DNA of 20,000 nucleotides, from NCBI GenBank assembly GCA_964490075.1, contig CAZBBK010000024.1:51118-71117 (forward strand), given 5' to 3'. Under the pieces are notes generated by a model. It made no database searches and was not told the origin of the DNA. It saw nothing but the letters and a program-made list of their open reading frames with translations. Origin of the DNA: an uncultured Gemmatimonadota bacterium. Lineage in GTDB: Bacteria; GCA-2686955. Below are positions 2-19,523 of the stretch, piece by piece (within the stretch, counting starts at the first letter, position 1; every line of letters starts with the position of its first letter). The position numbers were made by a program, and so were the translations under genes.

Positions 2-373
2 CTCGGCGTCCACTACAACGAGCTCTTGCTGGACAGCTTGGGGCTCACCCCCGGGCGCCTCTCCAGCGGCCGCTCCGCCTTTCTCGAGTACCTCTTCGTG
101 GTGCTCCTGACCTGCGCCATCGTGGTCAGCTTGAAGGTGATCGGAGCGCTCCTGGTCGAGGCGCTGGTGGTGGTCCCGGCCGCGGCGGCCCGCAACCTGT
201 CGGCCAGCATGCGCGCCTACCTGCTCTGGAGCATCGTCCTGGCGCTGGCGGCCTGCGTCGCCGGGCTCTTCCTCTCGACCCGTCTCCTGGTGCCGACCGG
301 GGGGGCGATCGTGCTTTCGATGGCGGCCATCTTCTTCGTCACGCTGGCCATCGGAGCGCTGCGCCGGCCATGA
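2..373 (+). CDS. Metal (Zn/Mn) ABC transporter permease, ZnuB/MntB (ABC-3) family, 5'-truncated by the window edge
   Basis: Frame open from base 2 (LGVHYNELLLDS...). Hydrophobic, with family-typical segments 'IVVSLKVIGALLVEALVVVPAAAARNL' and 'PTGGAIVL'. Confidence 0.85.
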   Translation, partial: LGVHYNELLLDSLGLTPGRLSSGRSAFLEYLFVVLLTCAIVVSLKVIGALLVEALVVVPAAAARNLSASMRAYLLWSIVLALAACVAGLFLSTRLLVPTGGAIVLSMAAIFFVTLAIGALRRP

Positions 374-413
374 GGGCGCGCCCACGGCCGCTCCGGCGTC
401 GCGCTGCTTTTCG

Positions 414-442
414 TTTCGATTCGGCCTTCGCCACGCTACCAT
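414..442 (+). promoter_or_regulatory. Possible sigma70-type promoter of the pst operon
   Basis: GCTACCAT at 435-442 (-10-like TACCAT at 437-442); only a weak -35-like TTCGAT at 415-420. SD CAGGAGG at 484-490 precedes the GTG at 498. Confidence 0.35.
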
Positions 443-497
443 ACGCGCGCCAATCGCCATCCGATCAGCCAGACATCAGCCTCCAGGAGGGTAGACC

Positions 498-1415
498 GTG
501 AGAGTTCGTCACCCGGCACGCCTTCGCCTGCTGCTGCCCTCCATCGGTCTCATCGCGGCCGGCTGCGGCGGTGGGCCGGATGCCGGCCGCGCCGGCGACG
601 CCCCGGCCCCGGACGCCCAGATCATTCGCATCACCGGCTCCGACACCATGGTCAACCTGGCCCAGGCCTGGGCCGAGAACTACCAGGCCGAGCATCCTGG
701 CGTCTCTCTCCAGGTCGCGGGCGGCGGCTCCGGGGTCGGCATCGCCGGCCTGATCGACGGCATCGTCGACATGACCAACGCCAGCCGGAAGATGAAGAAG
801 ACCGAGCTTGCGCGGGCGCGAGAGACGCGCGGCGTGGAGGCAATGGAGCACGTCGTAGGTCTCGATGCGCTCGCCGTCTACGTCCACCGAGACAACCCGC
901 TGGAGTCGATCTCGATTCCCGAGCTCGCCGAGATCTACGGGGAGGCGGGCGAGTACGTCACCTGGGGGCAGTTCGCCCATCCGGTGCCCGGCTGCGACAG
1001 CGACCGGATCGTGCGCGTCAGCCGCCAGAACAACTCCGGCACCTATGTCTACTTCCGCAGCGCGGTGCTGGGCAGCGAGCGGGAGTTCGAGCTCGGCTCG
1101 ATCGACCAGAGCGGATCGAAGGACGTGGTGGCCCTGGTCTCCCGGACCCCCTGCGCGATCGGCTACAGCGGTATGGCCTACGAGACACCCGAGGTGAAAT
1201 CGTTGCCGGTGGCCGCCGCGAGGGGGGCCGAGGCCTTCGCGCCGACGCCCCAGACCGCCGCCAGCGGCGACTACCCGATCTCACGGCCGCTCTTGATCTA
1301 CACCGCCGGCGAGCCGACCGGCGCCCTGAAGGACTACCTGGACTGGATCTACTCACCGGCCGGGCAGCGGATCGTCGCCGAGATCGGCTATGTGCCGATC
1401 CGTCCCACGGAGTAG
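498..1415 (+). CDS. pstS: Phosphate ABC transporter substrate-binding lipoprotein
   Basis: Lipobox LIAAGC; phosphate-binding motifs GSDT, GGGSGVG, NASR, SRQNNSGT and YPISRPL; strong SD; first gene of the pst cluster. Confidence 0.95.
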   Translation: MRVRHPARLRLLLPSIGLIAAGCGGGPDAGRAGDAPAPDAQIIRITGSDTMVNLAQAWAENYQAEHPGVSLQVAGGGSGVGIAGLIDGIVDMTNASRKMKKTELARARETRGVEAMEHVVGLDALAVYVHRDNPLESISIPELAEIYGEAGEYVTWGQFAHPVPGCDSDRIVRVSRQNNSGTYVYFRSAVLGSEREFELGSIDQSGSKDVVALVSRTPCAIGYSGMAYETPEVKSLPVAAARGAEAFAPTPQTAASGDYPISRPLLIYTAGEPTGALKDYLDWIYSPAGQRIVAEIGYVPIRPTE

Positions 1416-1427
1416 CAGCCCCGATCG

Positions 1428-2336
1428 ATGATGAACAGCCTGCTGCGCCGGCTCCTGGCGAGGTCCGAGCCGCTGGTGGAGCTCCTGATCCGCCTCAGCG
1501 GCTGGAGCGCCATTCTCTTCGTGTTCGGGATCTTCTTCTTCATCCTTCGCGAAGGCGCTCCTTTCCTGATCCGTGAGCTCGATCTCCGCGAGTTCTTCAC
1601 CAGCCCCAACTGGCGCCCCGACTCCGAGCTGCGCCAGCAGTTCGGGATCCTGGCACTGCTCTGTGGCACCCTCTCGGTCACCACGCTGGCCATGGCGCTC
1701 TCGGTGCCGCTGGGTCTCGGCGCCGCCATCTACATCTCCGAGTTCTGCAGCGGGGCGAGCAAGGAGACCCTCAAGATCGTGCTCGAGCTCCTGGCCGCAA
1801 TCCCATCGGTGGTCTGGGGTTTCGTCGGTTACATGGTGATGAACCCGATCATCATCTGGGCCACTGGAGCGCCGGTCGGGGTCAACGTGCTGAACGGCGG
1901 GATCATCCTGGCACTGATGAGCGTGCCGATCATCGCCTCGGTGGGGGAGGACGCGCTCAAGGCGGTGCCCGACTCGTACCGCGAAGCCGCGCTGGCCCTG
2001 GGGGCGACACGCTGGCAGCTGGTCTATCGAGTGCTCCTGCCGGCGGCGCGCAACGGCCTTCTGGCCGCGGTCCTGCTGGGCGTCGGGCGGGCGATCGGCG
2101 AGACCATGGCCGTGCTGATGGCCACCGGTCACGCGGTCCAGATCCCCGGCAGCCTGCTCGATCCGGTGCGCACCCTGACGGCCACCATCGCCGCCGAGCT
2201 GGGCGAGACCGTCGAGGGCGAATCGCACTACCAAGCTCTGTTCGTGATCGGCTCGCTCTTGATGCTGATCGCCTTCGTGGTCAACGTGACGGCCGACCTG
2301 GTGGTCAAGGGAATTCGCAACGAGGAGCGTTCGTGA
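1428..2336 (+). CDS. pstC: Phosphate ABC transporter permease PstC
   Basis: Multiple TM helices; 'ELLAAIPSVVWG', EAA loop 'REAALALGATRWQ', 'GRAIGETMAVLM'. Confidence 0.95.
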   Translation: MMNSLLRRLLARSEPLVELLIRLSGWSAILFVFGIFFFILREGAPFLIRELDLREFFTSPNWRPDSELRQQFGILALLCGTLSVTTLAMALSVPLGLGAAIYISEFCSGASKETLKIVLELLAAIPSVVWGFVGYMVMNPIIIWATGAPVGVNVLNGGIILALMSVPIIASVGEDALKAVPDSYREAALALGATRWQLVYRVLLPAARNGLLAAVLLGVGRAIGETMAVLMATGHAVQIPGSLLDPVRTLTATIAAELGETVEGESHYQALFVIGSLLMLIAFVVNVTADLVVKGIRNEERS

Positions 2337-3277
2337 TGAAGGCGGAGCCGCGCCGCGAGCCACCGGCCCTGCCCGGTCCCGGCACCTTCGCGGTCACCGC
2401 GGTCGCGCTTCGCAAGCGCCGGACCGAGCGCGGAATGAACCTGCTGCTCTTGTGCGGGACCTTCTCGCTGCTGCTGCCGCTGATCGGGATCATCTCCTAC
2501 ATCGCCTGGCACGCGGCACCGGCCCTGTCGCTCGACTTCATCTTCGAGAACCCGCGCAACTACATGCGAGAGGGGGGGGTCTGGTCCCCTCTGATCGGCA
2601 CCTTCTACCTGGTCCTGGTGTCGCTCGCGGTCGCCGCTCCGATCGGCGTGCTGGCCGGTGTCTATCTCAACGAGTACGCCCGCGAGGGTTGGATCACGCG
2701 GATGATCAACCTGGCGGTGGTCAACCTCGCCGGGGTGCCGAGCATCGTGCACGCGCTCTTCGGGGTCGGCGCCTTCGTCCATTTCGCGGCGATGGGCCGC
2801 TCGGTGCTGGCGGCCTCTTGCACCCTGGCGATCATGACCCTTCCGGTGATCATCACCAGCACCCGCGAGGCGCTGGCGGCGGTGCCGATGGCTTTTCGCG
2901 AAGCTTGCTGGAACCTCGGGGCCTCGCGCTGGCAGACGATTCGAACCATCGTGCTGCCGAACTCGATCAGCGGGATTCTGACCGGCGTGATTTTGCAGGT
3001 GTCGCGTGCCGCGGGAGAGACCGCACCGATCCTTTTCACCGGCGCGGTCTTCTACGTCAAGGTCTCCGACCAGGGCTGGGGCTATTTCTTCCCCTATGGA
3101 CTGGGCGATCGTTGCATGGCCCTCTCCTACCACCTGTTCACGATCTCGACCCAGGTCACCGGCGTGAGCGACGCCCAGCAGTACGCCACGGCCGCGGTAC
3201 TGATCGGATTGGTGCTGGCCGTCAACCTGGTCTCGATCGCGCTGCGCTCTTACCTGAGATCGAAGAAGCGATGGTAG
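2336..3277 (+). CDS. pstA: Phosphate ABC transporter permease PstA
   Basis: 'NLAGVPSIVHALFG', EAA loop 'REACWNLGASRWQTI', 'SRAAGETAPILFT'. TGATG overlap with the pstC stop (alternative GTG start at 2333). Confidence 0.95.
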   Translation: MKAEPRREPPALPGPGTFAVTAVALRKRRTERGMNLLLLCGTFSLLLPLIGIISYIAWHAAPALSLDFIFENPRNYMREGGVWSPLIGTFYLVLVSLAVAAPIGVLAGVYLNEYAREGWITRMINLAVVNLAGVPSIVHALFGVGAFVHFAAMGRSVLAASCTLAIMTLPVIITSTREALAAVPMAFREACWNLGASRWQTIRTIVLPNSISGILTGVILQVSRAAGETAPILFTGAVFYVKVSDQGWGYFFPYGLGDRCMALSYHLFTISTQVTGVSDAQQYATAAVLIGLVLAVNLVSIALRSYLRSKKRW

Positions 3278-4038
3278 CCCCCTCGTCCGCCAAGGTGGAG
3301 CTACGCGATGTGAGCGTGTACTACGGAACCCGTCAGGCGCTCGACACGGTCGATCTGCGGATCCCGCGCAAGGGGATCTTCGGCATCATCGGCCCCGCCA
3401 ACTCCGGCAAGACCACGCTTCTGAAGTGTATCAACCGCACCATCGACTTCGTGCCTTCGGCAAGAGTCACCGGAAAGGTGCTGGTCGACGGCGGCGACGT
3501 GTGGCGGATGCGCAACGTGTTCGAGCTGCGGCGCCGGATCGGCATGGTCTTTCCCTTGCCGGTCGGGCTGCCGCTATCGGTCTACGACAATGTCGCTTAC
3601 GCGCCGCGCATGGCCGGAGTCGCCGATCGCCGCGAGCTCGACGCGCTGGTACGTCGTTGTCTCGAGCAAGCCGCACTCTGGGACGAGGTCGCCGATCGAC
3701 TCGATCTCCTGGGCACCAAGCTCTCGGGCGGGCAGCAGCAACGCTTGACCATCGCCCGCGCCCTCTCGCACCGGCCCGAGATCCTCTGTCTCGACGAGTT
3801 CTCGATCGCCGTCGACCCCGTGACGACGATGAAGATCGAGGACGTGCTGCTGGGATTGAAGAACGAGATCACGATCATTCTGGTGACCAACCTGGTCCAG
3901 CAGGCTCATCGGCTGGCCGACCGTGTGGCCTTCTTCAACGCCTCGCGACTGGTGGAGGTCGACACCACCGAGAAGATCTTCTCGGAAAGCCCCGCCCAGC
4001 AGCTCACCTTCGACTACGTGCGCGGAAACTTCGGATGA
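3271..4038 (+). CDS. pstB: Phosphate ABC transporter ATP-binding subunit 1 (PstB-like; degenerate cis motifs, intact signature), 255 aa
   Basis: ATG at 3271 overlaps the pstA stop. Walker A GPANSGKT, signature LSGGQQQR, Walker B ILCLDEF, PstB-like 'LEQAALWDEVADRL' and C-terminal 'DYVRGNFG'. Confidence 0.9.
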   Translation: MVAPSSAKVELRDVSVYYGTRQALDTVDLRIPRKGIFGIIGPANSGKTTLLKCINRTIDFVPSARVTGKVLVDGGDVWRMRNVFELRRRIGMVFPLPVGLPLSVYDNVAYAPRMAGVADRRELDALVRRCLEQAALWDEVADRLDLLGTKLSGGQQQRLTIARALSHRPEILCLDEFSIAVDPVTTMKIEDVLLGLKNEITIILVTNLVQQAHRLADRVAFFNASRLVEVDTTEKIFSESPAQQLTFDYVRGNFG

Positions 4039-4802
4039 GCCGGCCCTGCATCGTGACCGAGCGGCTGAACCTCTTCTACGGGGATTTTCAGGCCCTGATC
4101 GACGTCGATCTCGAGGTTCGCGAGGGGATCATCACCGGCTTGATCGGCCCTTCGGGCTGTGGCAAGTCGACCCTGCTCAGGTGTTTCAACCGCTTGAACG
4201 AGCGCTATGGCAACGTGAGCACCAGCGGTGAGATCCGCGTCCTCGGCAAGAACATCTACGACCAAGACGTATGCCTCGAGGAGCTGCGCAAGAGCGTGGG
4301 AATGGTGTTTCAGCGGCCGAATCCGCTGCCGATTTCGATTTACGACAACATCGCCTTCGGCACGCAGGTGCACAACCGCCGCTCGGCGCTGCGCCGCAAC
4401 GAGATCGACGAGGCGGTGGAAGGGGCCCTGCGCGATGTCGAGCTGTGGGACGATGTGAAGGACCGCTTGCGAGAGCGGGCCACTCGGCTCACCCTGGAAC
4501 AGCAGCAGAAGCTGTGCATCGCCCGCCTGCTGCCGCTCAAGCCGCGTGTCATTTTGATGGATGAGCCTTGCTCGGCGCTCGATGGCGAGGGCACCATGGC
4601 CATCGAGCAGCTCATGGATCATCTGCGAGGCAAATACACCATCGTCATCGTCACGCACAACATGGCACAGGCACGCAGGGCCACCGATGAATGCCTGTAT
4701 ATGCTGCTGGGCAAGCTGATCGAGCATGCTCCGACGGCGGAGCTGTTCTTGAATCCACGGCGCAAAGAGACCGAGTTGTACGTGGAAGGTCGATACGGAT
4801 AA
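4035..4802 (+). CDS. pstB: Phosphate ABC transporter ATP-binding subunit 2 (PstB-like; intact cis motifs, degenerate signature), 255 aa
   Basis: ATGA overlap with the preceding gene. GPSGCGKST, GMVFQRPNP, ILMDEPCSALD, IVIVTHNMAQA, C-terminal 'YVEGRYG'. The signature position reads LTLEQQQK. Confidence 0.92.
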   Translation: MSRPCIVTERLNLFYGDFQALIDVDLEVREGIITGLIGPSGCGKSTLLRCFNRLNERYGNVSTSGEIRVLGKNIYDQDVCLEELRKSVGMVFQRPNPLPISIYDNIAFGTQVHNRRSALRRNEIDEAVEGALRDVELWDDVKDRLRERATRLTLEQQQKLCIARLLPLKPRVILMDEPCSALDGEGTMAIEQLMDHLRGKYTIVIVTHNMAQARRATDECLYMLLGKLIEHAPTAELFLNPRRKETELYVEGRYG

Positions 4803-4833
4803 AGCCGGAGACGCCGACCGAGAGCGAGAAAAT

Positions 4834-5493
4834 ATGCAGAAATTGGATCAAGACCTGAGCGACCTGAAGAGCCAGCTGATGGAGATGGGGGAGCGCGCCG
4901 TGCAGATGGTCACGGCCGTGTTGCGGGCATTCACCGACCGCGACGCAGGGGCGCTCGCCGGCATCGAAGCCGACGAGGACTGGGTCAACCGCGCGCAGGT
5001 CGAGCTCGACCGCAAGACGATCCACCTGATCACCATCTACGGACCGGCGGCGATGGACCTGCGCTTCTTGATGATGGTGGCGCGGATCACCAGCGACCTG
5101 GAGCGGATCGGCGACCTGGCGATGAACACGCGCCCTCACGTCGCCGAACTGAATCAGCAAGAGCCGAGCGGGCCGCTCGGCGATCTACAGCGCATGGGGG
5201 AGCTTTCGATCGACATGGTGCGCGAATCCCTTCGGGCCTTTCAGAAGGACGACGCGGCGCTGGCGCGCGACACCCTGGGGCGCGACGACGAGGTCGATGC
5301 CCTCTATGATCACATCACGGACGTCGTCGTCGGCCTCATGATGCAATCGACGGCCGCGATACCGCGCTCCCTGGGCCTGATCACGCTCGCCCGCTCCCTG
5401 GAGCGGATCGCAGATCACGCGACCAACGTCTGCGAAGAGGTGATCTACGTGGTCGAGGGCAAGGATATTCGCCACCGCATGGACGAGAGCTGA
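4834..5493 (+). CDS. phoU: Phosphate transport regulator PhoU
   Basis: Two PhoU repeats with 'DLERIGDLA' and 'SLERIADHATNVCEEVIY', plus 'DDEVD'; last gene of the pst cluster. Confidence 0.95.
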   Translation: MQKLDQDLSDLKSQLMEMGERAVQMVTAVLRAFTDRDAGALAGIEADEDWVNRAQVELDRKTIHLITIYGPAAMDLRFLMMVARITSDLERIGDLAMNTRPHVAELNQQEPSGPLGDLQRMGELSIDMVRESLRAFQKDDAALARDTLGRDDEVDALYDHITDVVVGLMMQSTAAIPRSLGLITLARSLERIADHATNVCEEVIYVVEGKDIRHRMDES

Positions 5494-5554
5494 GACAAGT
5501 GACACCTGACGAGACGCAGGAGGCTCGCCTGCCGAGGCGAGTCGTCGCCGACCG

Positions 5555-6568
5555 ATGATCCAAGCCACACAACCCCTGGAAGAGAAGCGCGGCGTGCCGG
5601 AGACCTATCGTGGGGTCGCCGGCCAGCTCGACCTCGCCGCCGCGTATCGCCTGATGGTCCGCGCCCGGGTCCTGGAAGAGCGCTTGATCAAGATGGCCAA
5701 GTCGCAAGACGGCCAATTCTGGATCGGCGGCCCCGGAGAAGAGGCGTTCAACGTCCCGCTGGGGCTCTTGGTCAAGTGCGGCCAGGGCCTCGACCACGAC
5801 TTCCTGCACCTCCACTACCGCAGCTCTGCGATCCTCCTGGCTCTCGGCGCGCGCATGATCGACTTCATCCGCCAGATGGCCTCGCGCGCCAGCGATCCCT
5901 TCAGCGGCGGGCGGAACTTCGTCAACCACGTCGCGGTTCGCGAGTGGAACATCGTGCCCACCTCGTCGACCATCGAGACCCAGTACTCGATCGCTCCGGG
6001 CACCGCGCTCGCCCAGCTGCGTGCCGGCGGCGACGCCATCACGATCGTCAACGGCGGCGACGCCGGCTCGGCGGAGGCGGACTTCGCCACCTGCCTGAAC
6101 TGGAGCAGCCGGCCGGACCGTGAGCTGCCGATCCTGATCGTCGTCGCCAACAACCGCTTCGGGATCTCGACTCCCTGCGAAGAGGTGCACGGCGACGCCA
6201 TCATCGCGCGGCGCGCGGCGGCTTTCGGGATTCGTTGGGACACGGTCGACGGCAACGATCCCGAGGCCTCTTGGCGGATGCTTTCGGAGGCCATCGCCTA
6301 CGTCAGGGCGGAGCGCAAGCCCTTCTGCCTGGAGGCCGCCGTGGGCCGCCTGCACGGCCATTCATCTTCCTCCGGGGCGGCGCGCGAAGACGGATTCGAT
6401 TGCGTTGGGGCGTTCGCGGAAAAGCTCGTGGAGCGCGGCGTCCTGAGCCCCGAACAGGTGGCGGCGCTCCACGAGGAGTCGCGCCAAGAGGCGCTGGATG
6501 CGCTGCACCAGGTGCGCCGGGAGCCCGCGCCCGCCGCCGATTCGATTCACGATCACACCTTCGCGTAA
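5555..6568 (+). CDS. TPP-dependent 2-oxoacid dehydrogenase E1 component, alpha subunit (branched-chain/pyruvate family)
   Basis: 'GPGEEA', 'HLHYRS', TPP-binding motif variant 'GGDAGSAEADF...VVANNRFGIS', 'VDGND', 'RLHGHSSS'. Confidence 0.9.
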   Translation: MIQATQPLEEKRGVPETYRGVAGQLDLAAAYRLMVRARVLEERLIKMAKSQDGQFWIGGPGEEAFNVPLGLLVKCGQGLDHDFLHLHYRSSAILLALGARMIDFIRQMASRASDPFSGGRNFVNHVAVREWNIVPTSSTIETQYSIAPGTALAQLRAGGDAITIVNGGDAGSAEADFATCLNWSSRPDRELPILIVVANNRFGISTPCEEVHGDAIIARRAAAFGIRWDTVDGNDPEASWRMLSEAIAYVRAERKPFCLEAAVGRLHGHSSSSGAAREDGFDCVGAFAEKLVERGVLSPEQVAALHEESRQEALDALHQVRREPAPAADSIHDHTFA

Positions 6569-8434: not shown

Positions 8435-10990
8435 TCAGCCGATCCGTTCCAGCTCGATGATCGGTCCCTCGGGGGCGTGATCGTCGGAGAGGTCCACCAG
8501 GCCTTCCAGCAGCCACAGATTCTCGTCCCGCGGGTCGACGAGCACCTGCTGCAGACTCCAGCGGTGCTCGCCGGCCTGGCGAATCACCGTCTTGTCCGAG
8601 AGCCGGGCGTGGTGATCCGCACGCAGCTCCCCGTACTCTTCGAAGAAGGGCGTCATCTCCTCCTCGAGCCGAGCGCCGCTCCACGTCTCGCGGTCGGGGT
8701 GATGTCGCAGACAGCTCGCGGCCTCTTCGAAGTCCCGTACCGCCAGCGCCCGCACCAGAGCGTGGAGCTCCGCGCGGATGCGCGCGTGGAAGCTCCGCGT
8801 ATCGCGCGAAAGATCGGCGGGCTGGGCAGCGCGGCGTTCCTCTCCGGGAGCATCCGGACCGGCGACCATGCGTTCCCACTCCTTCGAGAGACTGGAATCG
8901 GTGCGCTCGAGCGCGGCGCGCAGAAAGGCGCTGACTTCGTCTACGCTCTCGGTTCGGTTCAGATGGGGCACGCTCTGCAGCAGAGTCTTGTAACACTGGC
9001 TGAGGTACCGGAGCAGCGTGCCCTCCATCCGCTCCAGTCGATAGTGGACCACGTAGTCGCGAAACGAGTAGTGCCCTTCGTACATCTCGCGGGCGATCGA
9101 TTTCGGCTTGATGTTCTCCGCCCCCACCCAGGGGTGGTGCGCGGCGAACGCATTGAAGGTGGTGTAGATCAGCTCCTCGTTCGGCTTCGGATGGCTGATC
9201 TTCTCCAACTCCTCCATGCGCTGTTCGTACTCTACGCCCTGCGCCTTGAGATCCGCGACCCGCTCGCCCTTCAGCTTCGACACCTGCTGGCGCAAGATCG
9301 CGCCAGGATGCTCGAGCACCGCCTCCACCAAGGTCAAGAGATCGAGCCCGTAGTCGGGATCGTCGCGATCCAGCAGAGCCAGCGCCTCCAGGAGGTAGAG
9401 CGACAGCGTATGGAAGATCGAGAAGTCATCTTGAAGGTCGGGCGCGACCAGTACGTCTCGGCCGCGCCCCTCCTTTCGGGCCGCGCTTTCTACCAGCTCG
9501 GCCTTGCGCAGGGCACGGAAGTGAACCTTGGCCTCACGCCGCAGTTTCGGCTTGAGCGCAGCGCGCTCGTGGCAAAGCTCGATCAGTTGGACCAGGGCGC
9601 GGTAGCCGCCGCCGTGACCGACAACCTGGGAGTTGCGTTGCAATAGGTTCAGCAGCATCGCATGACCGACCGAGAACTGCGAGCGCAGAGTCTCCGGTGT
9701 GCCGCGCTCCAAGCGCCGAAAAGTGTTCTCATCCCAGCCCACGAAACCGAGCTTCGGAGGTTGTCGCTTCTTGAACTTGCGCTTGGAGCCACTGGCGCCG
9801 GCGGCTTTGGCGGCAGCGGCGCGGTTCTCGACCACGTGCTCCGGAGCCTGGCACACCACCCAACCCTGTTCATCGAAGCCCTTGCGTCCCGCGCGCCCCG
9901 CGATCTGCTGAAAGTCCCGAATGGACAGGATCCGTACCTTGTGACCATCGTACTTGCACAAGCGTGTGAACAACACCGTTCGAATCGGAATATTGACACC
10001 TACGCCGAGAGTGTCGGTTCCCGAGACGATCTTCAGCAGTCCCTGCTGCGCCAGCTTCTCGATCAACAGGCGATACTTGGGGAGCAGCCCGGCGTGGTGC
10101 AGCCCGACACCGTGGCCGATGAAGCGACGGATCGTCTTGCCGTAGGGGCTGTCGAAAGGGAAGCCCTTGATCGCATCGGCCAGCGCCCGTTTCTCTTCCT
10201 TCGGACACAGGTCGATGCTGGTCAGGCTCTGCGCCTGCTCCGCCGCCTGCTTCTGGCTGAAGTTGACCAGGTAGATCGGGGCCCTTCGCTGCTCGAGCAG
10301 CCCTTTGACCGTGTGGTGGATCGGGATCTCGCTGTAGCTGAAGTCGAGCGGCACCGGACGCTCGGTGGAACGTACCACGGAGACCGCGCTCCCGGTTCGC
10401 TGTTCGAGGTGGCGAACGATCGCCGCAGTGTCGCCCAGGGTGGCCGACATCAGGAGGAAGGTGGTACTCGGCAGAGTGAGCAGCGGAATCTGCCAGGCAA
10501 CGCCCCGGTCGACATCACCATAATAGTGAAACTCGTCCATGACGACATATTCGGCGGGGGCCGCGGCTCCCTGTCGCAAGGCCATGTTCGAGAGCACCTC
10601 GGCGGTGCAGCAGACGATGGGCGCGGATGGATTGATCGCGGCATCGCCGGTCAACATGCCGACGTTGGCCGCGCCGAAATGTCTGCAGAGATCGAAGAAC
10701 TTCTCGCTCACCAGGGCCTTGATCGGGGCGGTGTAGTAGGAAGGGCGGTTGCGCGCGGCACACCAGAAATGAGCGGCGATCGCGACCAGCGACTTGCCTG
10801 ATCCGGTGGGCGTGCTCAGCACCACGTGGGAGCCGGTCATCACCTCCAGAATCGCTTCTTCCTGGGCCGGGTAGAGCTCCAGTCCCAGGTCGGCGGTCCA
10901 GCCGAAGAAGAGATCGAGCAACTCGTCGTCTTCGACGGGATGACCGAGGGGGACTCTCTCGAGGAGGTTGGGATGGGGCGTTTCGGACAT
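8435..10990 (-). CDS. Ski2-like superfamily 2 DEAD/DEAH-box helicase with a long C-terminal region (DUF3516-type architecture)
   Basis: Q motif LYPAQEEA, Walker A TPTGSGKS, PIKALVSEK, DEFH, MSAT, HHAGLLP, GTDTLGVGVN, QIAGRAGR; SD GGAG 7 nt before the ATG. Confidence 0.93.
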   Translation of the reverse strand: MSETPHPNLLERVPLGHPVEDDELLDLFFGWTADLGLELYPAQEEAILEVMTGSHVVLSTPTGSGKSLVAIAAHFWCAARNRPSYYTAPIKALVSEKFFDLCRHFGAANVGMLTGDAAINPSAPIVCCTAEVLSNMALRQGAAAPAEYVVMDEFHYYGDVDRGVAWQIPLLTLPSTTFLLMSATLGDTAAIVRHLEQRTGSAVSVVRSTERPVPLDFSYSEIPIHHTVKGLLEQRRAPIYLVNFSQKQAAEQAQSLTSIDLCPKEEKRALADAIKGFPFDSPYGKTIRRFIGHGVGLHHAGLLPKYRLLIEKLAQQGLLKIVSGTDTLGVGVNIPIRTVLFTRLCKYDGHKVRILSIRDFQQIAGRAGRKGFDEQGWVVCQAPEHVVENRAAAAKAAGASGSKRKFKKRQPPKLGFVGWDENTFRRLERGTPETLRSQFSVGHAMLLNLLQRNSQVVGHGGGYRALVQLIELCHERAALKPKLRREAKVHFRALRKAELVESAARKEGRGRDVLVAPDLQDDFSIFHTLSLYLLEALALLDRDDPDYGLDLLTLVEAVLEHPGAILRQQVSKLKGERVADLKAQGVEYEQRMEELEKISHPKPNEELIYTTFNAFAAHHPWVGAENIKPKSIAREMYEGHYSFRDYVVHYRLERMEGTLLRYLSQCYKTLLQSVPHLNRTESVDEVSAFLRAALERTDSSLSKEWERMVAGPDAPGEERRAAQPADLSRDTRSFHARIRAELHALVRALAVRDFEEAASCLRHHPDRETWSGARLEEEMTPFFEEYGELRADHHARLSDKTVIRQAGEHRWSLQQVLVDPRDENLWLLEGLVDLSDDHAPEGPIIELERIG

Positions 10991-11211
10991 GAGAAAGCTC
11001 CCGGGCGGTTGGCTTGCAGGCCGCGAATGGTAGCCGCGGCGGCTTCATTGCGGGGGCAGTTCCGTTTCGCTGGACCGGTCGACTACGATATGAGATACTC
11101 GCCCGCGTTGCACAGTCGGGGGACGCGCGGCGCTCAAGGGCCCATGCCGAACACGCGGCATCCAAAAGTCGCCGCGATTTGGGAGTGGGCCACGCAGACT
11201 GGAGTAGACGC

Positions 11212-13530
11212 ATGAAGTTCGTTCGGGAAGCGATGCGGATCGAGCGGGGCAGTGACTGGGAGTCGAAGTACTTCTGGCTCGGTCTGGCGCTGACGGTGGT
11301 CGAGTCTCTCGGCGGGCTATACCTGCTCTGCATCGATGAACTGACCCACCTCGACATGACCCTGCTCCTGTTCCACATCCTGGCTGGGTTTCCCTTCGTG
11401 CTGCCCTGCATCATGTTCTGGCGCCGGCACCGGCGCTACGCGCCGATCGTGGAGCGTCCGGCCTACACCTGGCTCGGCTGGAGCTGCGTGCTGTCGATGG
11501 TGTTCGCCCTGGTGTCGGGCATCTGGCTGACCTTCCGGGGAATCTCCGGTATCTACTGGCTGTGGCTGTCCCACACAGTGATCTCGCTCTACGGTTTTGC
11601 CGCGCTCACCCTCTACATCCTGATAACCGTGCGGCTGTGGATGACCGAGCTGGCCGCGACGCCGAAAGCCAGCGCCTTTCTGGGGCAGACGCTGTGGAAG
11701 ATCGGTGCCAAGGTCGCGGTGGGAAGCGTGGTGCTGGTGGCGCTCAACATCGCCTATGCCGCCTACTACGAGGAACCGCCCGTGGACCGAGTCGTCGAGG
11801 ACTACAGCTACTCCTTTGGCGACGACCCCTTCTACCCGAGCCGCGTTCAGACGGCATCCGGGGGGTTCTACGCTCCGGAGCATTTCCTGCGCTCCAAAAC
11901 CTGCGGCATCTCCGGTTGCCACACGGAGACGCTGCGCCAGTTCGAGGACTCCGCGCACTATCGCACTCCGACGCCGATTTTTGGCGCGGTGCAATCACTG
12001 TTCATGGAGGAGGCCCGCCAAGGCGAGTTCCTCGGATCCCGCGGCACGTTGCAGATCGACGAAATGCGGGATATCCACGAGGGGCGCGAGAGCTTCCGCT
12101 TCTGCGCCGGATGTCACACTCCGGTGGCGCTGATCGCTGGAGCGGTCGACAAGGGCGCGGGATTGCCGAGCTTCGAGGAGTGGGAAGGGGACTCTTGCAT
12201 TCTCTGCCATCGCATCACATCGATGGGGGACGTGGGAGGCGGCGGTGGGGGCGACTACACCGTCGCGCCGCCACCCAACCGCTATCTCTTCGCCTTCTCT
12301 GATCATCCTCTCGGCGTGTGGATCAACAAGACTCTGATCAACAACAAGCCCGAGCATCACATGGCGATGTACGACACACCGTTCTACGAGACATCGGAGT
12401 ATTGCGTCGGATGCCACAAGCGGCTCACTTATTCCTACTGGGAAGCCAGTCCCTACAACCACCCGCCCGCCGGTGAAGAGACCACGGAGTGCCAGGACTG
12501 CCACATGCCGCAGGTGGCGACCGACGACGACGTGTCGGCCCTCGCGAAAGGTACGATTTCCGACCACCGCACGCTGGCGGCCAACCTGGTCACACCGATG
12601 CTCTACGGCTTGGAGGACCAGGATCGCCTCACGCGCGAGTTCATGATGGACGAGAAAATGGTGCTCGAAGTGGCGGCGCCAGACAACACCTGGCCGCAGA
12701 GCAAGCTGGAGTTCATCATTCGCGTGATCAACAAGGGAGTGGGTCATATTTTCCCGGCCGGGCCCGAAGCTGACCTGATCGAATCCTGGGCCGAGGTGAT
12801 CGTGACCGACGGTTCGGGCAAGACACTGCTCGAGTACGGAGTGCTCGACGACAAGGGTCATCTGGATCACGATTCGACCTACGTCTACACGGTCGTGCCG
12901 CACGATCAGGATGGGCGAGCGTTGGAGCTCGACCGGCACAGGAACTGGATGTTCGCCGAAGACAAGCTCCACGTCGTGCCGGCCAAGTACTTCGATGAGT
13001 TCCCCTTCTCGATCGACTTGGCCCGGCACGATGTGACCGGACCGATCAAGATCGACGCGCGGCTGCGTTTCCGGAAATTCAACCAGGCGTTCCTCGATTT
13101 TGCCGCCGAGGCCGGATTCGCGCCGCAGCTCGAGGCGCCGGTGGTCGAGCTGGATGTCGCTACCGCGAGCGTCGCCATCGCCGCCGACCCGGTCGTTGCC
13201 GAGCAGGCCGCCGAGCAATGGCTGGCGAGGCTCGATGGGGCGGAGGATGGTGAGCTCAAGGGCTACACCAAGAAGCCGAACTTCGACGACCACTTGCTCG
13301 CCAGGAAGCTCTCCCTGGAGAGCCGAATCCGGTTGGTGGACGCCCAGGGACTCTATGGCGAAGGTCAATACGAGGCGGCGCTGGCGATCCTCGATGAGCT
13401 CTCGGAAAAGGACATGGAAGAGCGTGTGTGGCTGAGTCGGCTTCGCTCCGCCTTGGTTGAGGCCATGCGCGAGAAGCAGGACCGTCCCATCGGAGAGATC
13501 GTCGACCCCTTTACCGGTGAGGCGGGGTGA
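11212..13530 (+). CDS. Membrane-anchored multiheme c-type cytochrome (about 5 N-terminal TM helices, 5 heme-binding motifs), 772 aa
   Basis: SD GGAG at 11201 supports the ATG at 11212 rather than the ORF-track start at 11014. Motifs CGISGCH, CAGCH, CILCH, CVGCH, CQDCH; 'NKGVGHIFPAG' beta-domain motif seen in multiheme cytochromes; TPR-like C-terminal helices. Confidence 0.88.
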   Translation: MKFVREAMRIERGSDWESKYFWLGLALTVVESLGGLYLLCIDELTHLDMTLLLFHILAGFPFVLPCIMFWRRHRRYAPIVERPAYTWLGWSCVLSMVFALVSGIWLTFRGISGIYWLWLSHTVISLYGFAALTLYILITVRLWMTELAATPKASAFLGQTLWKIGAKVAVGSVVLVALNIAYAAYYEEPPVDRVVEDYSYSFGDDPFYPSRVQTASGGFYAPEHFLRSKTCGISGCHTETLRQFEDSAHYRTPTPIFGAVQSLFMEEARQGEFLGSRGTLQIDEMRDIHEGRESFRFCAGCHTPVALIAGAVDKGAGLPSFEEWEGDSCILCHRITSMGDVGGGGGGDYTVAPPPNRYLFAFSDHPLGVWINKTLINNKPEHHMAMYDTPFYETSEYCVGCHKRLTYSYWEASPYNHPPAGEETTECQDCHMPQVATDDDVSALAKGTISDHRTLAANLVTPMLYGLEDQDRLTREFMMDEKMVLEVAAPDNTWPQSKLEFIIRVINKGVGHIFPAGPEADLIESWAEVIVTDGSGKTLLEYGVLDDKGHLDHDSTYVYTVVPHDQDGRALELDRHRNWMFAEDKLHVVPAKYFDEFPFSIDLARHDVTGPIKIDARLRFRKFNQAFLDFAAEAGFAPQLEAPVVELDVATASVAIAADPVVAEQAAEQWLARLDGAEDGELKGYTKKPNFDDHLLARKLSLESRIRLVDAQGLYGEGQYEAALAILDELSEKDMEERVWLSRLRSALVEAMREKQDRPIGEIVDPFTGEAG

Positions 13531-13560: not shown

Positions 13561-14184
13561 TCAGGGCTCTTGGCGGGGAGCGGCTTCGACCGCGGCTCCC
13601 GGCGGTTCCCAGTCCGGCGTGTTCTTTGCCCCGGTGCCCCCATCGGCTCGATCGGGTCGTGCGTTTCCGACCTTCCGCTCGGAGGAGTCGATGAAGCCAT
13701 TTCGGTTTCGGTCGCGGCGTTGGAATGAGGCCCGCGAACCGGGAAACTCCTGCGCTGAGATCCGACCGTCCCCGTTCCTGTCTTCGAGATTTGCTCGCGC
13801 TCTCCTCCGGTCGACCTCGACTTGGCGCTGCCGCCGCCAGGTCTTCCGCTCGGCGCGCACCTCACTGGCATCCACAAGACCGTCGCCATTCAGATCTAGG
13901 CGATCGAAGATGTGGAATTCTCGCCAAGAAACGCGCTGGTCGCCGTCGCGGTCCAGACCTTGAATGAGGAGCGGCGGCTCGTCCATCGCGCCGGCCCGTC
14001 GGTCGCCGTTCCCTGTTACGACCCATCCCAGTTCTCCCTGCCGGACGACGAAGATGGCGAGCACCGCACCAGCCACGCCAGCGATCACGACCAGTGCGCG
14101 CGACACCCGGTCGCTGCCTGTGCGCTTGGCTTTCGACTTCCTGGATCGGGATCGTCGCCGGTTCTGTTTTGGGGGTCGGTTCAT
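13561..14184 (-). CDS. Membrane-anchored EF-hand (Ca2+-binding loop) protein A, 207 aa
   Basis: Basic N-terminus, one TM helix (ALVVIAGVAGAVLAIFVV), then loops DRDGDQRVSWRE, DLNGDGLVDASE, DRNGDGRISAQE and DRNRNGFIDSSE. Start set at ATG 14184, 19 nt after the upstream gene's stop. Confidence 0.82.
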   Translation of the reverse strand: MNRPPKQNRRRSRSRKSKAKRTGSDRVSRALVVIAGVAGAVLAIFVVRQGELGWVVTGNGDRRAGAMDEPPLLIQGLDRDGDQRVSWREFHIFDRLDLNGDGLVDASEVRAERKTWRRQRQVEVDRRRARANLEDRNGDGRISAQEFPGSRASFQRRDRNRNGFIDSSERKVGNARPDRADGGTGAKNTPDWEPPGAAVEAAPRQEP

Positions 14185-14203
14185 CGCGGTCGGGGGAAGG
14201 GTC

Positions 14204-14815
14204 TCAATTGGATTCCGGCTCCTGTTCTGTGGACTCCTCGTCCGCGGGGACGAACTCCAACAGGCCCACTCGCTGTCCCCGCACCGCGCGCTCCCGACCG
14301 GAGAGCGGATCGCGCCACGCGCTCCCGGGAGCACCGCCGGCCAGATCGAGAAAGCCGTCCAGGTCTTTGTCCAGCCGGTCGAAGAGCGAGCGCGGACCGG
14401 GAAACTCGCTCGGTGACACGCGCATGTCTCCGTCCAGGTCGTGGGCCGGGAGCGGGCGGATCAAATCGCCTCCCTGATCGACTCCACGAGAGTCCCCGGT
14501 GCGTGAATCGGTGCCTGCCCGAGCCTCTCGTGTGTCCACGAAGTAGTCCTTGTCGCGGTCGAGAGCCTCGAAGACGTGAAACTCCTCGTGAGAGACGCGA
14601 CCGTCCTCGTCTCGGTCCAGCCCGCGGATCAATGCGGGAAGCTCGGCTCCTGGTGCCTCGTCCGCGGCACCACCCAGGAAGACCCTGCCGATCGTCGCCG
14701 GTCCTTGTGGCCACAGGGCCAGAACCAGCACGAGGATCCAGGCCGCGCCCGCCAGGCGAACCAGCGCGCGGCTTCTGCGTTCCCGGCTTCCGGCGTTGTT
14801 GGGCTCCGACGACAT
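14204..14815 (-). CDS. Membrane-anchored EF-hand protein B, paralogue of A
   Basis: TM helix (ALVRLAGAAWILVLVLALW); loops DRDEDGRVSHEE, DRDKDYFVDTRE, DLDGDMRVSPSE and DKDLDGFLDLAG. AGGA lies 7 nt before the ATG at 14815 (alternative ATG at 14821). Confidence 0.82.
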   Translation of the reverse strand: MSSEPNNAGSRERRSRALVRLAGAAWILVLVLALWPQGPATIGRVFLGGAADEAPGAELPALIRGLDRDEDGRVSHEEFHVFEALDRDKDYFVDTREARAGTDSRTGDSRGVDQGGDLIRPLPAHDLDGDMRVSPSEFPGPRSLFDRLDKDLDGFLDLAGGAPGSAWRDPLSGRERAVRGQRVGLLEFVPADEESTEQEPESN

Positions 14816-15001
14816 GGGCATTCCTGCACGCGCCGCGCTGCATGCGACGCCGTGCCCAGTCTACCCGCCCCTCGTCTTCTCGCGCGAGTGCGAGGGCATC
14901 CCAACGACCAGGACGGCGCCGCGGGTCAGACATCCCCATCCCTTTCCGCGACGCCGCCCCATCCCGGTCGTGAGACGCCTCGGCTGAAGAGGCGTTGCCC
15001 G

Positions 15002-15304
15002 CTATTGGAGCTCGGCGCGATATCGGCTCCGATCCGGCTCGAAGATGATCGGCACGCGGGTCTCGTCGATGTCTCCGGCGCGGGTGTCGGCCACTCGTCG
15101 TCCGGCGGCGACATCGAGTCCGGAGCGTGTGCACAAGCGAGCGCGCAGCTCCGGCGCGACGTAGGGAGGCAGCCAGACGGCGGCCGCGGCGAGCAGATCG
15201 ATGGTCACCGGCCGGGCCCCGGGCGGCGGGGCGGTCTCGGAAGCCGGAGCGGTGTGGGCGAGGGCGATGATCGAGAGAGTGGCGATCCAAGTACGGGACT
15301 TCAT
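15002..15304 (-). CDS. Hypothetical exported protein, 100 aa
   Basis: Strong SD (CAGGAG) before the ATG at 15304; signal-peptide-like [21 protein letters not shown]. Confidence 0.6.
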
Positions 15305-15582
15305 CTTCTTTCTCCTGGAGCCGGACCAGAGGCCCGGGAGTCGAGCGGTGCGCGGGCCGCATCCAATCGATCTCGGTGGCTGCTCCGCGCGTTCGATCGG
15401 GGGTATCGCAGACCGCGTGCCAATCCGGGAAGAAAGCCGTAATACGTGGGATGACACCATGTTGTGGGACGACGAAAGGAGTCCGCGCGGGCCTGGGCGT
15501 CGGCGCCGCCGACATCTGCGGGGTGTATTGTGTGCCCCTCCGACGATCCGGCTGCCCACACGACCAGTTCCGCGCCCGGCTC

Positions 15583-15611
15583 TTGACGGCCATCCGCGGG
15601 GCGCGCACTCT
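15583..15611 (+). promoter_or_regulatory. Possible sigma70 promoter of thyA-folA
   Basis: TTGACG (15583-15588), 17-nt spacer, CACTCT (15606-15611), ending 9 nt before the thyA ATG. Confidence 0.45.
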
Positions 15612-15620
15612 TTCCCCGCC

Positions 15621-16403
15621 ATGAAGCCCTACCTCGACCTGCTGCGAACCGTGCTGGAGCACGGCGAAGAACGCAGCGATCGCACCGGAACTGGGACCCG
15701 CTCGATCTTCGGGGCACAGTGCCGCTACGACCTGCGGATGGGCTTCCCGCTGGTCACCACCAAGAAGATCGTGTTCGCCTCGGTGGTGCGTGAGCTGCTC
15801 TGGTTTCTGCGCGGCTCCACCAACATCCACGACGATCTGACCCAGCACACATCGATCTGGGATCCCTGGGCGGACGAGAAGGGCGACCTGGGCCCCATCT
15901 ATGGCCACCAATGGCGCAACTGGGGGGGAGAGGGGATCGATCAGATTCGCGACGCCATCGACCTGATTCGCCGCCAGCCCCAGAGCCGCAGAATCATCGT
16001 CAGCGCCTGGAATGTCGCCGATGTGCCACGCATGGCGCTGCCGCCCTGTCATCTGCTCTTTCAGTTCTACGTCGCGCAAGGGGGGATGCTCGACTGCCAG
16101 CTCTACCAGCGCTCCGCCGATCTCGCGATCGGCGTGCCCTTCAACGTCGCCAGCTACGCCCTCTTGACCATGATGATCGCGGCCGAATGCGAGCTGACTC
16201 CACGCTTCTTCGTGCACACCTTCGGCGACGCGCACATCTACCTGAACCACGTAGAGGGCGTGCGGCGCCAGCTCGGCCGAACCCCGCACCCCCCGCCCCA
16301 GGTGCGCATCGCGAGCAAGCCGATCGACCAAATCTGCTTCGACGACATCGAGCTGGTCGGCTACCGGCACGAGCCCTTCATCCGCTTCCCGGTGGCGGTA
16401 TGA
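15621..16403 (+). CDS. thyA: Thymidylate synthase (ThyA)
   Basis: [31 protein letters not shown], catalytic [26 protein letters not shown]. Confidence 0.97.
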
Positions 16404-17525: not shown

Positions 17526-19394
17526 CTACGGCGCGGGAGTGCACCAGACCGGATTGCTGTAGGCCACGCCCTCGGTCGGATTGGCGCCGGGCGCCGTCGA
17601 GTAGGCGCGGTAGTAGGAGCCGCGATCGCGGGGAGCCGAGTCGCTGAGCAGTAGATTGCCGTCGCCCGTCACCGCGTCGAACTCGGCGATCAGCACCTCG
17701 ACGCTGTCTCCGGCCCGCCCGCGATAGACCTCGACCCTTCCGACCCGGTCCCCCATGTCGTAGGGGACCGCGATCACCACGTCCTGGCTCCCCACTCCCG
17801 CGGGCAGCTCCAGGTCGCCTCCCATCGGCACCCAGCTCCGCCCCGGGATGCGCGCCGCGATCGCCAGGTACTGGTAGCTCGACACATAGGCCAGGCCCCA
17901 TTCCAGCGATCGCTGGATCGACTCTCGCGAGAGATCGGGCCAGGCATAGACGTGGGTCCAGCCGAAGTCGAACGCGTCGTCGTGGGTATCCGACCCGGAG
18001 AAGCAGTAGATCTTGCTGCCCCGGAGCAGGTGCCGAACCCACCACGCCACATGGCCGCCCTGGCCGCTTCGCTTCTTGCCGTTCCAGATCTCCGCCCCGG
18101 TCAGGCCGTTCTGCCGAATGCCGGTGATCACGGCGTCGGAGTTTGAGGTGATCGATCCGCCGAGCGTCCAGTTCGGACAGGGGTGGTTCATGATCGCGAA
18201 GCCGCCATCGGCGCGGATCTCGGCGATGTTCTGCACGATCTCGAGAATCGGTCCGTAGCAGTAGCCTCCGCCCAGATCGCTGCCGCCGGGATACCAGCGC
18301 GAGATGAAATGGGCTCCCATGTGGTTGACGCCGCCCGGCAGCAGGCAGATCAGGTCGTAGAGATCGCCGCAGCCCTGGCGATCGCCCGACTCGGCACTGG
18401 TCAGCTCGGTGTCGGCGCAGATCAGCACGCCGCCCTGGGCGTTCAGCTCCTCGACCTTCTGGGCCACCCGCCCGTACTCCTCCTCCTTCTGCAGGCAGTA
18501 GGAATGGGAGGTGCTGGTGAACCAGTCGGCTCCGAGCGCGTCGTACTGGCTCTTGAGCACCTCGAGGGAGTTGTCGTCGCCCCAGTTGTTCGACTCGGCC
18601 TGACAGGTGGGGCAGCCGCGCCAGAAGCCGGCCTCGTCCTTGCAGTCGTGCACGTGCAGGTCGCCGGTGTACCATTCGCCGATCTCCGGGAAACGCGGCG
18701 TGTCACCCTCACCGCCGGCGGCCAGCGGCAGCCGTGGAAAGTCCTCGATCCCTTCGACACGGTGGCCGATCGTGGCGCTTCGCATTTCTCCGCCGGGAGT
18801 CCGGTAGCGCACCAGCACCTCGAGCTCGGCAACCGTCCCCGGGCCGGCCCGCAGCAGTCGATCCAGCGGCAAGCTCAGCTCGACCAGTCCCATGGCTGGC
18901 GCATCGGAGGGGTCGGTCGCGGCGCGTTCTCCCAGCAGGCGCAGCTCATCGAGCATCCCCTGCCGCTCCTCGTCACCGAAGGCCCGGAACGCCTCGTAGG
19001 GGACCAGACGCTGACTGTAGGCCTTGCTCTCGCTGGGCGGCACCAGCTGTCCGAGACGCACCATCTCGCCGTAGAGCCCGTCGTCGCCCGCCAGCTCCAG
19101 GTCGGCCCTGGCGTCTGCAACTCGTTGCCCCTCGTGGCGCAGCTCCACCTCCACCACGCGCACCCGCGAGCCGCGCGGACCGCAGTGGTAGACCTCGACG
19201 TGGGCCGTGACCGGCAGCGCGCGGCGCACCTGCTCGGGAAACCAGGCGCGCAGGCGTAGATCGGGTGAGGCCAGCGGCCAGCGCGCGGCATCGGCCAGGA
19301 TCGCCGCATCGGGAAGGCTGCTCGATGCGCCGGCCGTGGAGGCGAGGACCAGAGAAGAGAGGAGAGGGAGGCTCAGAGGGCCGAGACCATTCAT
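17526..19394 (-). CDS. Secreted PHP-fold metallohydrolase (CehA/McbA-like) with an unassigned N-terminal region, 622 aa
   Basis: SD GGAG before the ATG at 19394; signal peptide ending ...STAGA; motifs WYTGDLHVH, DTELT, NHMG, IMNHP, EIWNG, GSDTH and C-terminal 'YYRA...AYSNPVW'. Confidence 0.82.
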   Translation of the reverse strand: MNGLGPLSLPLLSSLVLASTAGASSSLPDAAILADAARWPLASPDLRLRAWFPEQVRRALPVTAHVEVYHCGPRGSRVRVVEVELRHEGQRVADARADLELAGDDGLYGEMVRLGQLVPPSESKAYSQRLVPYEAFRAFGDEERQGMLDELRLLGERAATDPSDAPAMGLVELSLPLDRLLRAGPGTVAELEVLVRYRTPGGEMRSATIGHRVEGIEDFPRLPLAAGGEGDTPRFPEIGEWYTGDLHVHDCKDEAGFWRGCPTCQAESNNWGDDNSLEVLKSQYDALGADWFTSTSHSYCLQKEEEYGRVAQKVEELNAQGGVLICADTELTSAESGDRQGCGDLYDLICLLPGGVNHMGAHFISRWYPGGSDLGGGYCYGPILEIVQNIAEIRADGGFAIMNHPCPNWTLGGSITSNSDAVITGIRQNGLTGAEIWNGKKRSGQGGHVAWWVRHLLRGSKIYCFSGSDTHDDAFDFGWTHVYAWPDLSRESIQRSLEWGLAYVSSYQYLAIAARIPGRSWVPMGGDLELPAGVGSQDVVIAVPYDMGDRVGRVEVYRGRAGDSVEVLIAEFDAVTGDGNLLLSDSAPRDRGSYYRAYSTAPGANPTEGVAYSNPVWCTPAP

Positions 19395-19523
19395 GGCGAG
19401 GGCTCCGTCATGGGGTGGAAGGGCGGGGTTGCGCCCGCGAGATGATCGTAACGCTCTTCGTTGCCCCGTGGGTGCGAGGGCGGGGCCGGACATGCGGCGC
19501 TTCGCTATCGTGCCTCTCTACTC

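Follow-up and report, generated by a model that had tools for sequence, protein, structure and literature searches.

Two adjacent genes in the phosphate-import operon of an uncultured marine Gemmatimonadota bacterium, pstB1 and pstB2, encode PstB-type ATPases with complementary motif losses. They lie in a 20,000-nucleotide stretch of DNA, referred to here as the window (assembly GCA_964490075.1, contig CAZBBK010000024.1, positions 51,118 to 71,117). Sequence comparison leads us to put the chance at about three in four that PstB1 and PstB2 form an obligate heterodimer in which one site is consensus and catalytic and the other degenerate, the latter probably still able to bind nucleotide. The ATP sites of ATP-binding cassette (ABC) proteins are composite, with Walker A, Walker B, Q-loop and H-switch provided by one subunit and the signature motif by the other. 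The same composite site is described in a review (PMC7756269). The two proteins would be the two halves of the ATPase in a PstSCAB-type phosphate importer. Site 1, composed of the PstB2 cis motifs and the PstB1 LSGGQ signature, would be the consensus catalytic site whose hydrolysis drives import; site 2, composed of the altered PstB1 cis motifs and the PstB2 LTLEQ signature, would be degenerate. On the motifs present, neither a PstB1 nor a PstB2 homodimer offers a complete site.

A first-pass annotation of the window, made from its letters alone, had listed these motifs and described two full-length, coupled genes of 255 amino acids. Every motif and coordinate that it gave is correct (Table 1), both genes have 255 codons, and the pstB1 stop codon (TGA, 4036-4038) overlaps the pstB2 start codon (ATG, 4035-4037) as ATGA (4035-4038). 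The two proteins are 36% identical to each other. Besides the motifs in the table, PstB1 has Tyr18 as its A-loop residue and reads D175-E176-F177 (3793-3801), with the catalytic Glu kept and Pro replaced by Phe; PstB2 has Gln93 in its Q-loop and D176-E177-P178. The solved E. coli PstB (9k3x_C), placed in the alignment, reads gpsgcgks, vfqkp, lsggqqqrl, ldepcsaldp and vthn at the matching places, and since it is canonical at each of them, the deviations in PstB1 and PstB2 are real departures. Three more DNA samples of the study that gave the window (X2-X4) yielded contigs that span the motifs without a single differing letter, which rules out a single-sample assembly error.

Table 1. Genes of the pst operon in the window and ATPase motifs of PstB1 and PstB2 (positions in the window; residues of the protein concerned)
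Feature	Position	Strand	Details
pstS, periplasmic phosphate-binding protein	498..1415	+	TIGR02136, 199.9 bits, cut-off 206.6; open reading frame
pstC, permease subunit	1428..2336	+	TIGR02138, 283.1 bits, cut-off 196.45
pstA, permease subunit	2333..3277	+	TIGR00974, 259.8 bits, cut-off 193.45
pstB1, ATPase, intact LSGGQ and altered cis motifs	3271..4038	+	TIGR00972, 279.0 bits, cut-off 343.2
PstB1 Walker A, GPANSGKT	3391..3414	+	residues 41-48; Asn where ABC proteins typically have the second Gly; Lys47 and Thr48 retained
PstB1 Q-loop position, Pro95 for Gln	3553..3555	+	Pro in 67/67 loci; Gln in 36/36 canonical PstB rows
PstB1 signature LSGGQ, intact	3721..3735	+	residues 151-155; LSGGQQQR in 67/67 loci
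PstB1 Walker B end and D-loop, D-E-F-S-I-A-V-D	3793..3816	+	DEF in 66/67 loci, SIA[IV]D in 67/67
PstB1 H-switch position, Asn207 for His	3889..3891	+	Asn in 67/67 loci
pstB2, ATPase, canonical cis motifs and degenerate signature	4035..4802	+	TIGR00972, 318.3 bits, cut-off 343.2
PstB2 Walker A, GPSGCGKS, canonical	4146..4169	+	residues 38-45; GPSGCGK[TS] in 65/65 loci
PstB2 degenerate signature LTLEQ, Gly-Gly to Leu-Glu	4488..4502	+	residues 152-156; L-x-L-E-[QE] in 65/65 loci
PstB2 H-switch His208	4656..4658	+	VTHN in 65/65 loci
phoU, phosphate signalling protein	4834..5493	+	TIGR02135, 182.8 bits, cut-off 130.25

Close homologues of PstB1 are not canonical in these motifs, a possibility that the first-pass annotation had raised. 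A search of 5.8 billion proteins gave, as its best 120 matches, proteins 73-99% identical to PstB1. In these and the query together, LSGGQ is present in 121/121, the Q-loop Pro in 120/121 (the one shortfall is a misfire of the pattern), DEF in 112/121 and VTN in at least 117/121, with nine proteins unmatched by the DEF pattern and four by the VTN pattern. Scanning one genome per species yielded 80 loci. A PstB1-type protein, 57-82% identical, is encoded in 67 of them (L033-L099), and the PstB proteins of the remaining 13 reach at most 48% identity. Pro95, Asn207 and LSGGQQQR are found together in all 67 PstB1-type loci. The predicted co-occurrence with a degenerate signature in the second gene also held, as 65 of the 67 have a PstB2-type gene immediately downstream and both exceptions are technical, one locus (L071) lying at a contig edge and the other (L043) being frameshifted in both genes. 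All 65 PstB2 proteins combine a canonical Walker A, Gln and His with an L-x-L-E-[QE] signature. PstA is encoded upstream on the same strand in 67/67 loci, and the full order PstS-PstC-PstA-(pair)-PhoU is present in 36/67, the others being truncated or rearranged. In L043 several frameshifts between 4000 and 5600 break both pstB genes and the motifs, including LTLEQ, can be read in other frames, which looks like indel errors of assembly and not like a pseudogene.

The strongest argument for the heterodimer is this reciprocal constraint: the signature is the sole canonical element that PstB1 always keeps and the sole one that PstB2 gave up. Conservation of LSGGQQQR throughout PstB1, together with that of Walker A, Gln and His throughout PstB2, is what one shared active site would lead us to expect. 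The replacement residues are held just as closely. Alignment of 37 PstB1 sequences (A1) shows G41, P42, A43, G46 and K47 to be invariant and T48 nearly so, Pro95, Phe177, Ile179 and Asn207 to be invariant, and Tyr18, Lys47, Thr48 and Asp175 to be conserved; in the PstB2 alignment (A2), L152, L154, E155 and Lys159 are invariant. We defined a fixed switch as a position with a conservation of 80% or more among 36 canonical PstB rows that here has a different residue, itself conserved at 90% or more. PstB1 has 15 such switches (S43A, S48T, Q95P, N98V, P99G, F100L, C160T, A166S, M174L, P177F, S179I, I204L, H207N, N208L and S216A), mainly in Walker A, the Q-loop, the position after Walker B, the D-loop and the H-switch. 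PstB2 has eight (F98L, A135V, G154L, G155E, R159K, A167P, T220C and F254Y), which include the Gly-Gly of the signature and the Arg after it.

Both paralogues underwent one sharp change and have been closely conserved ever since. In a quick maximum-likelihood analysis of 175 PstB sequences, with branch support from the Shimodaira-Hasegawa-like approximate likelihood-ratio test (SH-aLRT), PstB1 (67 rows) and PstB2 (66 rows) each occupy one side of a branch with a support of 100, on long stems of 0.67 and 0.68, respectively. Mean identity is 65% within PstB1, 67% within PstB2 and 57% among canonical rows; it is 43% between PstB1 and canonical PstB, 47% between PstB2 and canonical PstB, and 36% between the paralogues. 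The pairwise distances of pstB1 and pstB2 correlate (Mantel r 0.77, reached by 0/999 permutations), so the two genes travel as a unit. The ratio of nonsynonymous to synonymous substitution rates (dN/dS), whose estimation the first-pass annotation had proposed, comes to roughly 0.14 for PstB1 and 0.07-0.09 for PstB2 relative to L033, the nearest relative; both are rough values, with a dS of 1.1-1.6, and they indicate purifying selection.

The nearest neighbours of the PstB1 clade in the tree are the first genes of three further tandem pairs, L005, L007 and L109 (70 rows together, SH-aLRT 98); L005 and L007 also contribute, with their second genes, the nearest neighbours of PstB2 (support 94). 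The first subunits of these sister pairs have a canonical Walker A, Ala for the Q-loop Gln, Asn for the H-switch His (in L109, which reads VPHS, the His is kept) and LSGGQ; their partners have the signatures LPLDQ, LSLDQ or LSLGQ. They show a milder version of the complementary loss. A metagenome scan with the sister first subunits gave 80 loci, of which 71 have one canonical PstB with no tandem partner, five have tandem pairs and four, on short contigs, show nothing but a degenerate first subunit. The five pairs (L113, L114, L119, L121 and L158) are all asymmetric in the same way: the first subunit has Ala, Ser or Tyr for Gln, Asn for His and an intact LSGGQ, and the partner signatures read LPMDQ, LAPEQ, LSGEQ, LTEEQ and LSLEQ. 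Across the eight sister and metagenome pairs, His is replaced by Asn in 7/8 and LSGGQ is kept in 8/8. Two of these loci, L173 and L189, whose contigs are too short for any partner to be visible, encode a more extreme first subunit with Walker A GPANSGIT (Lys lost), Walker B D-R-P (Glu lost) and APHN or APHT, again with LSGGQ kept. In L005, a gene of 207 residues (738-1361, minus strand) lies between the two pstB genes and by eye resembles a small SAM-methyltransferase.

The losses can be ordered in part. Every pair has lost the Q-loop Gln and the glycines of the signature, which places these losses at the base, and every pair except L109 has lost the H-switch His. Walker A position 44 on the 67-row tree is Asn in 54 rows, Gln in 7, Gly in 5 and Thr in 1. 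With the root placed on the side of PstB2, the earliest division within PstB1 sets apart a 7-row clade in which four rows still have Gly44, and the window's PstB1 lies within a 46-row crown clade that is all Asn44. Because the early-split clade still has Gly in part and the crown is all Asn, the Walker A change is a late layer. The first-pass annotation had counted it among the deviations of PstB1; it is present as described, and falls outside the original asymmetry.

The asymmetric pair is ancient, tightly conserved and patchy over many phyla. The records of the 64 loci with both full-length genes, which are metagenome-assembled genomes, are labelled Planctomycetota (28), Verrucomicrobiota (15), Acidobacteriota (8), Myxococcota (4) and Lentisphaerota (2), with one each for Gemmatimonadota, Rokuibacteriota, Kiritimatiellota, Chloroflexota and Pseudomonadota and two unlabelled. 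The nearest relative is labelled Gemmatimonadetes and is 82% (PstB1) and 85% (PstB2) identical. The record of L083 is titled Akkermansia muciniphila, a label that looks doubtful because the genome containing it measures about 5.8 Mb. PstB1-type proteins at E<=1e-85 occur in at least 2/151 genomes in a sample of the phylum of L083 and at least 12/151 in a sample of another phylum, which are rough lower bounds, as the centre genome, chosen for having the pair, is included and 17 candidates were scored per genome. When 1.84 billion representatives were searched with a profile, the family shrank to a few clusters at 50%, and 92 of the best 150 matches are canonical.

What would the degenerate site contribute? 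Nucleotide binding at site 2 is probably kept because Tyr18, Lys47, Thr48 and Asp175 are conserved, and hydrolysis is probably low because Gln, His and Gly-Gly are lost together. We propose that site 2 would hold nucleotide through the A-loop Tyr, the Walker A Lys and Thr and the Walker B Asp, with little or no hydrolysis, and that it might serve as a stable contact or a regulatory site, as in heterodimeric exporters.

Several observations weigh against this interpretation. The catalytic Glu of Walker B is present in PstB1 (DEF in 66/67 loci); its loss has been called a hallmark of degenerate sites (PMC7544095), and because Glu176 is retained, slow turnover or residual hydrolysis at site 2 is possible. 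The altered Walker A, GPANSGKT, still matches the general P-loop pattern G-x4-G-K-[ST]. The D-loop of PstB1 reads SIAVD for SALD (Ser179 to Ile) and is an element of the opposite, consensus site, so that not every deviation lies in a single site; the earlier proposal that nearly all of them fall in one site stands by motif mapping, with this D-loop change as the part that does not fit. Nucleotide binding at the degenerate site may not be universal, because two residues, Lys in Walker A and Glu in Walker B, are missing from L173 and L189. The low dN/dS values are weakened by a dS above 1. Finally, position 44 of PstB1 shows a raw association with signature positions 153 and 156 of PstB2 (Asn with Thr in 39 pairs, Gln with Gln in 5, Gly with Ser...Glu in 4), but the association of positions 44 and 153 was not upheld when phylogenetically independent pairs were compared, a comparison that had no power, with only 5-7 changes available (6, 7 and 5 are needed on the tree).

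The retained Glu also bears on a different reading, in which both sites turn over, the altered one more slowly or differently tuned, and two ATP are still used per cycle. The DEF Glu in 66/67 loci and the invariant K47 are consistent with it, and the strict conservation of the new residues would fit a working site with altered chemistry. Loss of the H-switch His alone strongly lowers hydrolysis in other ABC ATPases. Here, the His and the Q-loop Gln (67/67 PstB1) and both signature glycines (65/65 PstB2) are jointly gone, and L173 and L189 are without Lys and Glu as well. On balance, we regard turnover at both sites as rather unlikely.

If the heterodimer with one catalytic site is correct, site 2 might have a more specific task. 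We tentatively put forward, as a possibility that is less likely than not, that it is a purpose-built, non-hydrolytic sensor of nucleotide or phosphate status, which stays occupied, joins the subunits and gates the single catalytic site. Were this true, one ATP would be spent per phosphate, the activity of the importer or its PhoU/PhoR signal would be tuned by the energy or phosphate state, and the invariant Glu of the PstB2 signature and the Asn of the PstB1 H-switch would constitute the new chemistry of site 2.

Alternatively, PstB1 could be a regulatory paralogue, for instance a partner of PhoU or PhoR, with a PstB2 homodimer driving transport. The adjoining phoU gene would suit such a role, and Enterococcus faecalis has two tandem pstB genes of which the first is merely accessory, its product being replaceable by excess PstB2 (PMC12096839). 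Similar to the pair described here, tandem pstB1/pstB2 genes of Firmicutes are adjacent within a pst-phoU operon, and the second gene of E. faecalis is indispensable. However, the Firmicutes tandems show no complementary degeneracy and the E. faecalis proteins both have canonical motifs (PMC12096839), which makes them a different case. A PstB2 homodimer of the present type would have two sites without LSGGQ (L-x-L-E in 65/65), and the conservation of LSGGQQQR in 67/67 PstB1 proteins would be left unexplained. We therefore think a purely regulatory PstB1 improbable. The window's genome, which is 95.3% complete, has only pstB1 and pstB2 as PstB-like genes at E<=1e-40, and the pair, as the sole PstB in the genome, must therefore power phosphate import. 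No PstB above the TIGR00972 cut-off occurs in four of five further genomes with the pair; the genome of L036 (G041) has, in addition to its pair, a canonical PstB of 403.6 bits, and that of L072 (G043) has a third sub-threshold PstB-like gene elsewhere (279.7 bits).

Strain-specific decay or sequence error, for which we found no point in favour, can be rejected, as the same residues recur in 67 genome loci labelled as about 10 phyla, three other samples show zero differing letters, dN/dS is well under 1, and both proteins are full length with confident folds.

In work on ABC exporters, degenerate ATP sites are a central topic, and the layout with one consensus and one degenerate site is known from them. 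Reviews present such pairs of nucleotide-binding domains (NBDs) as an exporter feature (PMC7756269, PMC3971661). Similar to the heterodimeric exporters TM287/288, TmrAB, TAP1/2, CFTR and BmrCD, the PstB pair has unlike NBDs, one deviating in its Walker-side motifs and the other in its signature, so that the deviations meet mainly in one composite site, the PstB1 D-loop excepted, and has lost the H-switch His. The exporters, however, are of type IV with each NBD fused to a transmembrane domain, whereas here free NBD subunits belong to a type I importer; and exporter degenerate sites are mostly without the catalytic Glu, which is kept here together with a Pro in place of the Q-loop Gln. E. coli PstSCAB (PDB 9k3x, 9k3y, 9k3s) has the same operon parts and, in chain 9k3x_C, supplies the best PDB sequence match. 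It has one PstB on PstA and one on PstC (PMC12976172), but both come from a single pstB gene and form two identical consensus sites, in contrast to the two paralogues here, for which only one consensus site is possible.

Among importers, sequence analysis suggests one degenerate ATP site in the sugar and nucleoside importers RbsA and NupO (PMC11466899), which differ in having both NBDs in one polypeptide, in belonging to another importer class and in lacking the Walker A Lys in the degenerate half. In the passages covered, the same paper presents a heterodimer model of B. subtilis PstBA and PstBB, and the only degenerate sites that it mentions are those of the fused RbsA and NupO NBDs. According to PMC12096839, tandem pstB paralogues had not been the subject of any previous study. 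Our full-text literature searches, which covered few subscription journals, found no paper linking PstB to a degenerate site; the layout is apparently undescribed for phosphate importers. A natural type I importer with free NBDs would thus show an exporter-like layout, in loci labelled as about 10 phyla and as the sole Pst ATPase of the window's genome. As the subunits can be separately expressed and mutated, the pair could offer a clean system for the number of ATP used per substrate in ABC importers and for the purpose of a non-catalytic site. It also matters for annotation, since both proteins fall below the curated PstB cut-off and are generically named: source records naming either protein give plain 'phosphate ABC transporter ATP-binding protein'.

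Structure prediction supports the PstB fold of both proteins. The AlphaFold2 models of PstB1 and PstB2 have a predicted local distance difference test (pLDDT) score of 90.5 and 92.6, respectively, and the best PDB match of each is E. coli PstB 9k3x_C, with template modelling (TM) scores of 0.92/0.95 for PstB1 and 0.93/0.96 for PstB2; 9k3x_C and 9k3s_C rank first and second for both models (TM 0.89-0.96). Pair-specific changes in the permease, Y188F and G191A in the EAA loop of PstA and I211L in PstC, are too weak for a docking assignment.

The two ATPase genes belong to a single co-directional operon, pstS-pstC-pstA-pstB1-pstB2-phoU (498-5493), and so stand in the company expected of PstB genes. 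Neither protein unites all canonical ABC motifs. TIGR00972, the PstB equivalog family, is the best family by a wide margin for both, and both miss its curated cut-off; the same is true of the pairs of five other genomes. The start codon of pstB1 (ATG, 3271) overlaps the stop codon of pstA (TAG, 3275-3277). A promoter scan of 300-5700 gave no promoter-like site, and its terminator-like matches are all inside genes. PstS scores slightly below the TIGR02136 cut-off, so the binding protein is likewise somewhat divergent.

Elsewhere in the window, a DEAD/DEAH-box helicase of 851 residues with a DUF3516 domain (460 bits) is encoded at 8435-10990 on the minus strand. Three open frames, 11014-13530 (plus strand), 14181-16370 (minus) and 17526-19493 (minus), of 838, 729 and 655 residues, have no Pfam match at E<=1e-5, and some of them may be spurious, given the G+C-rich DNA. 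A thymidylate synthase domain occupies residues 143-400 of the open frame at 15201-16403 (plus strand), the true start of which probably lies further downstream.

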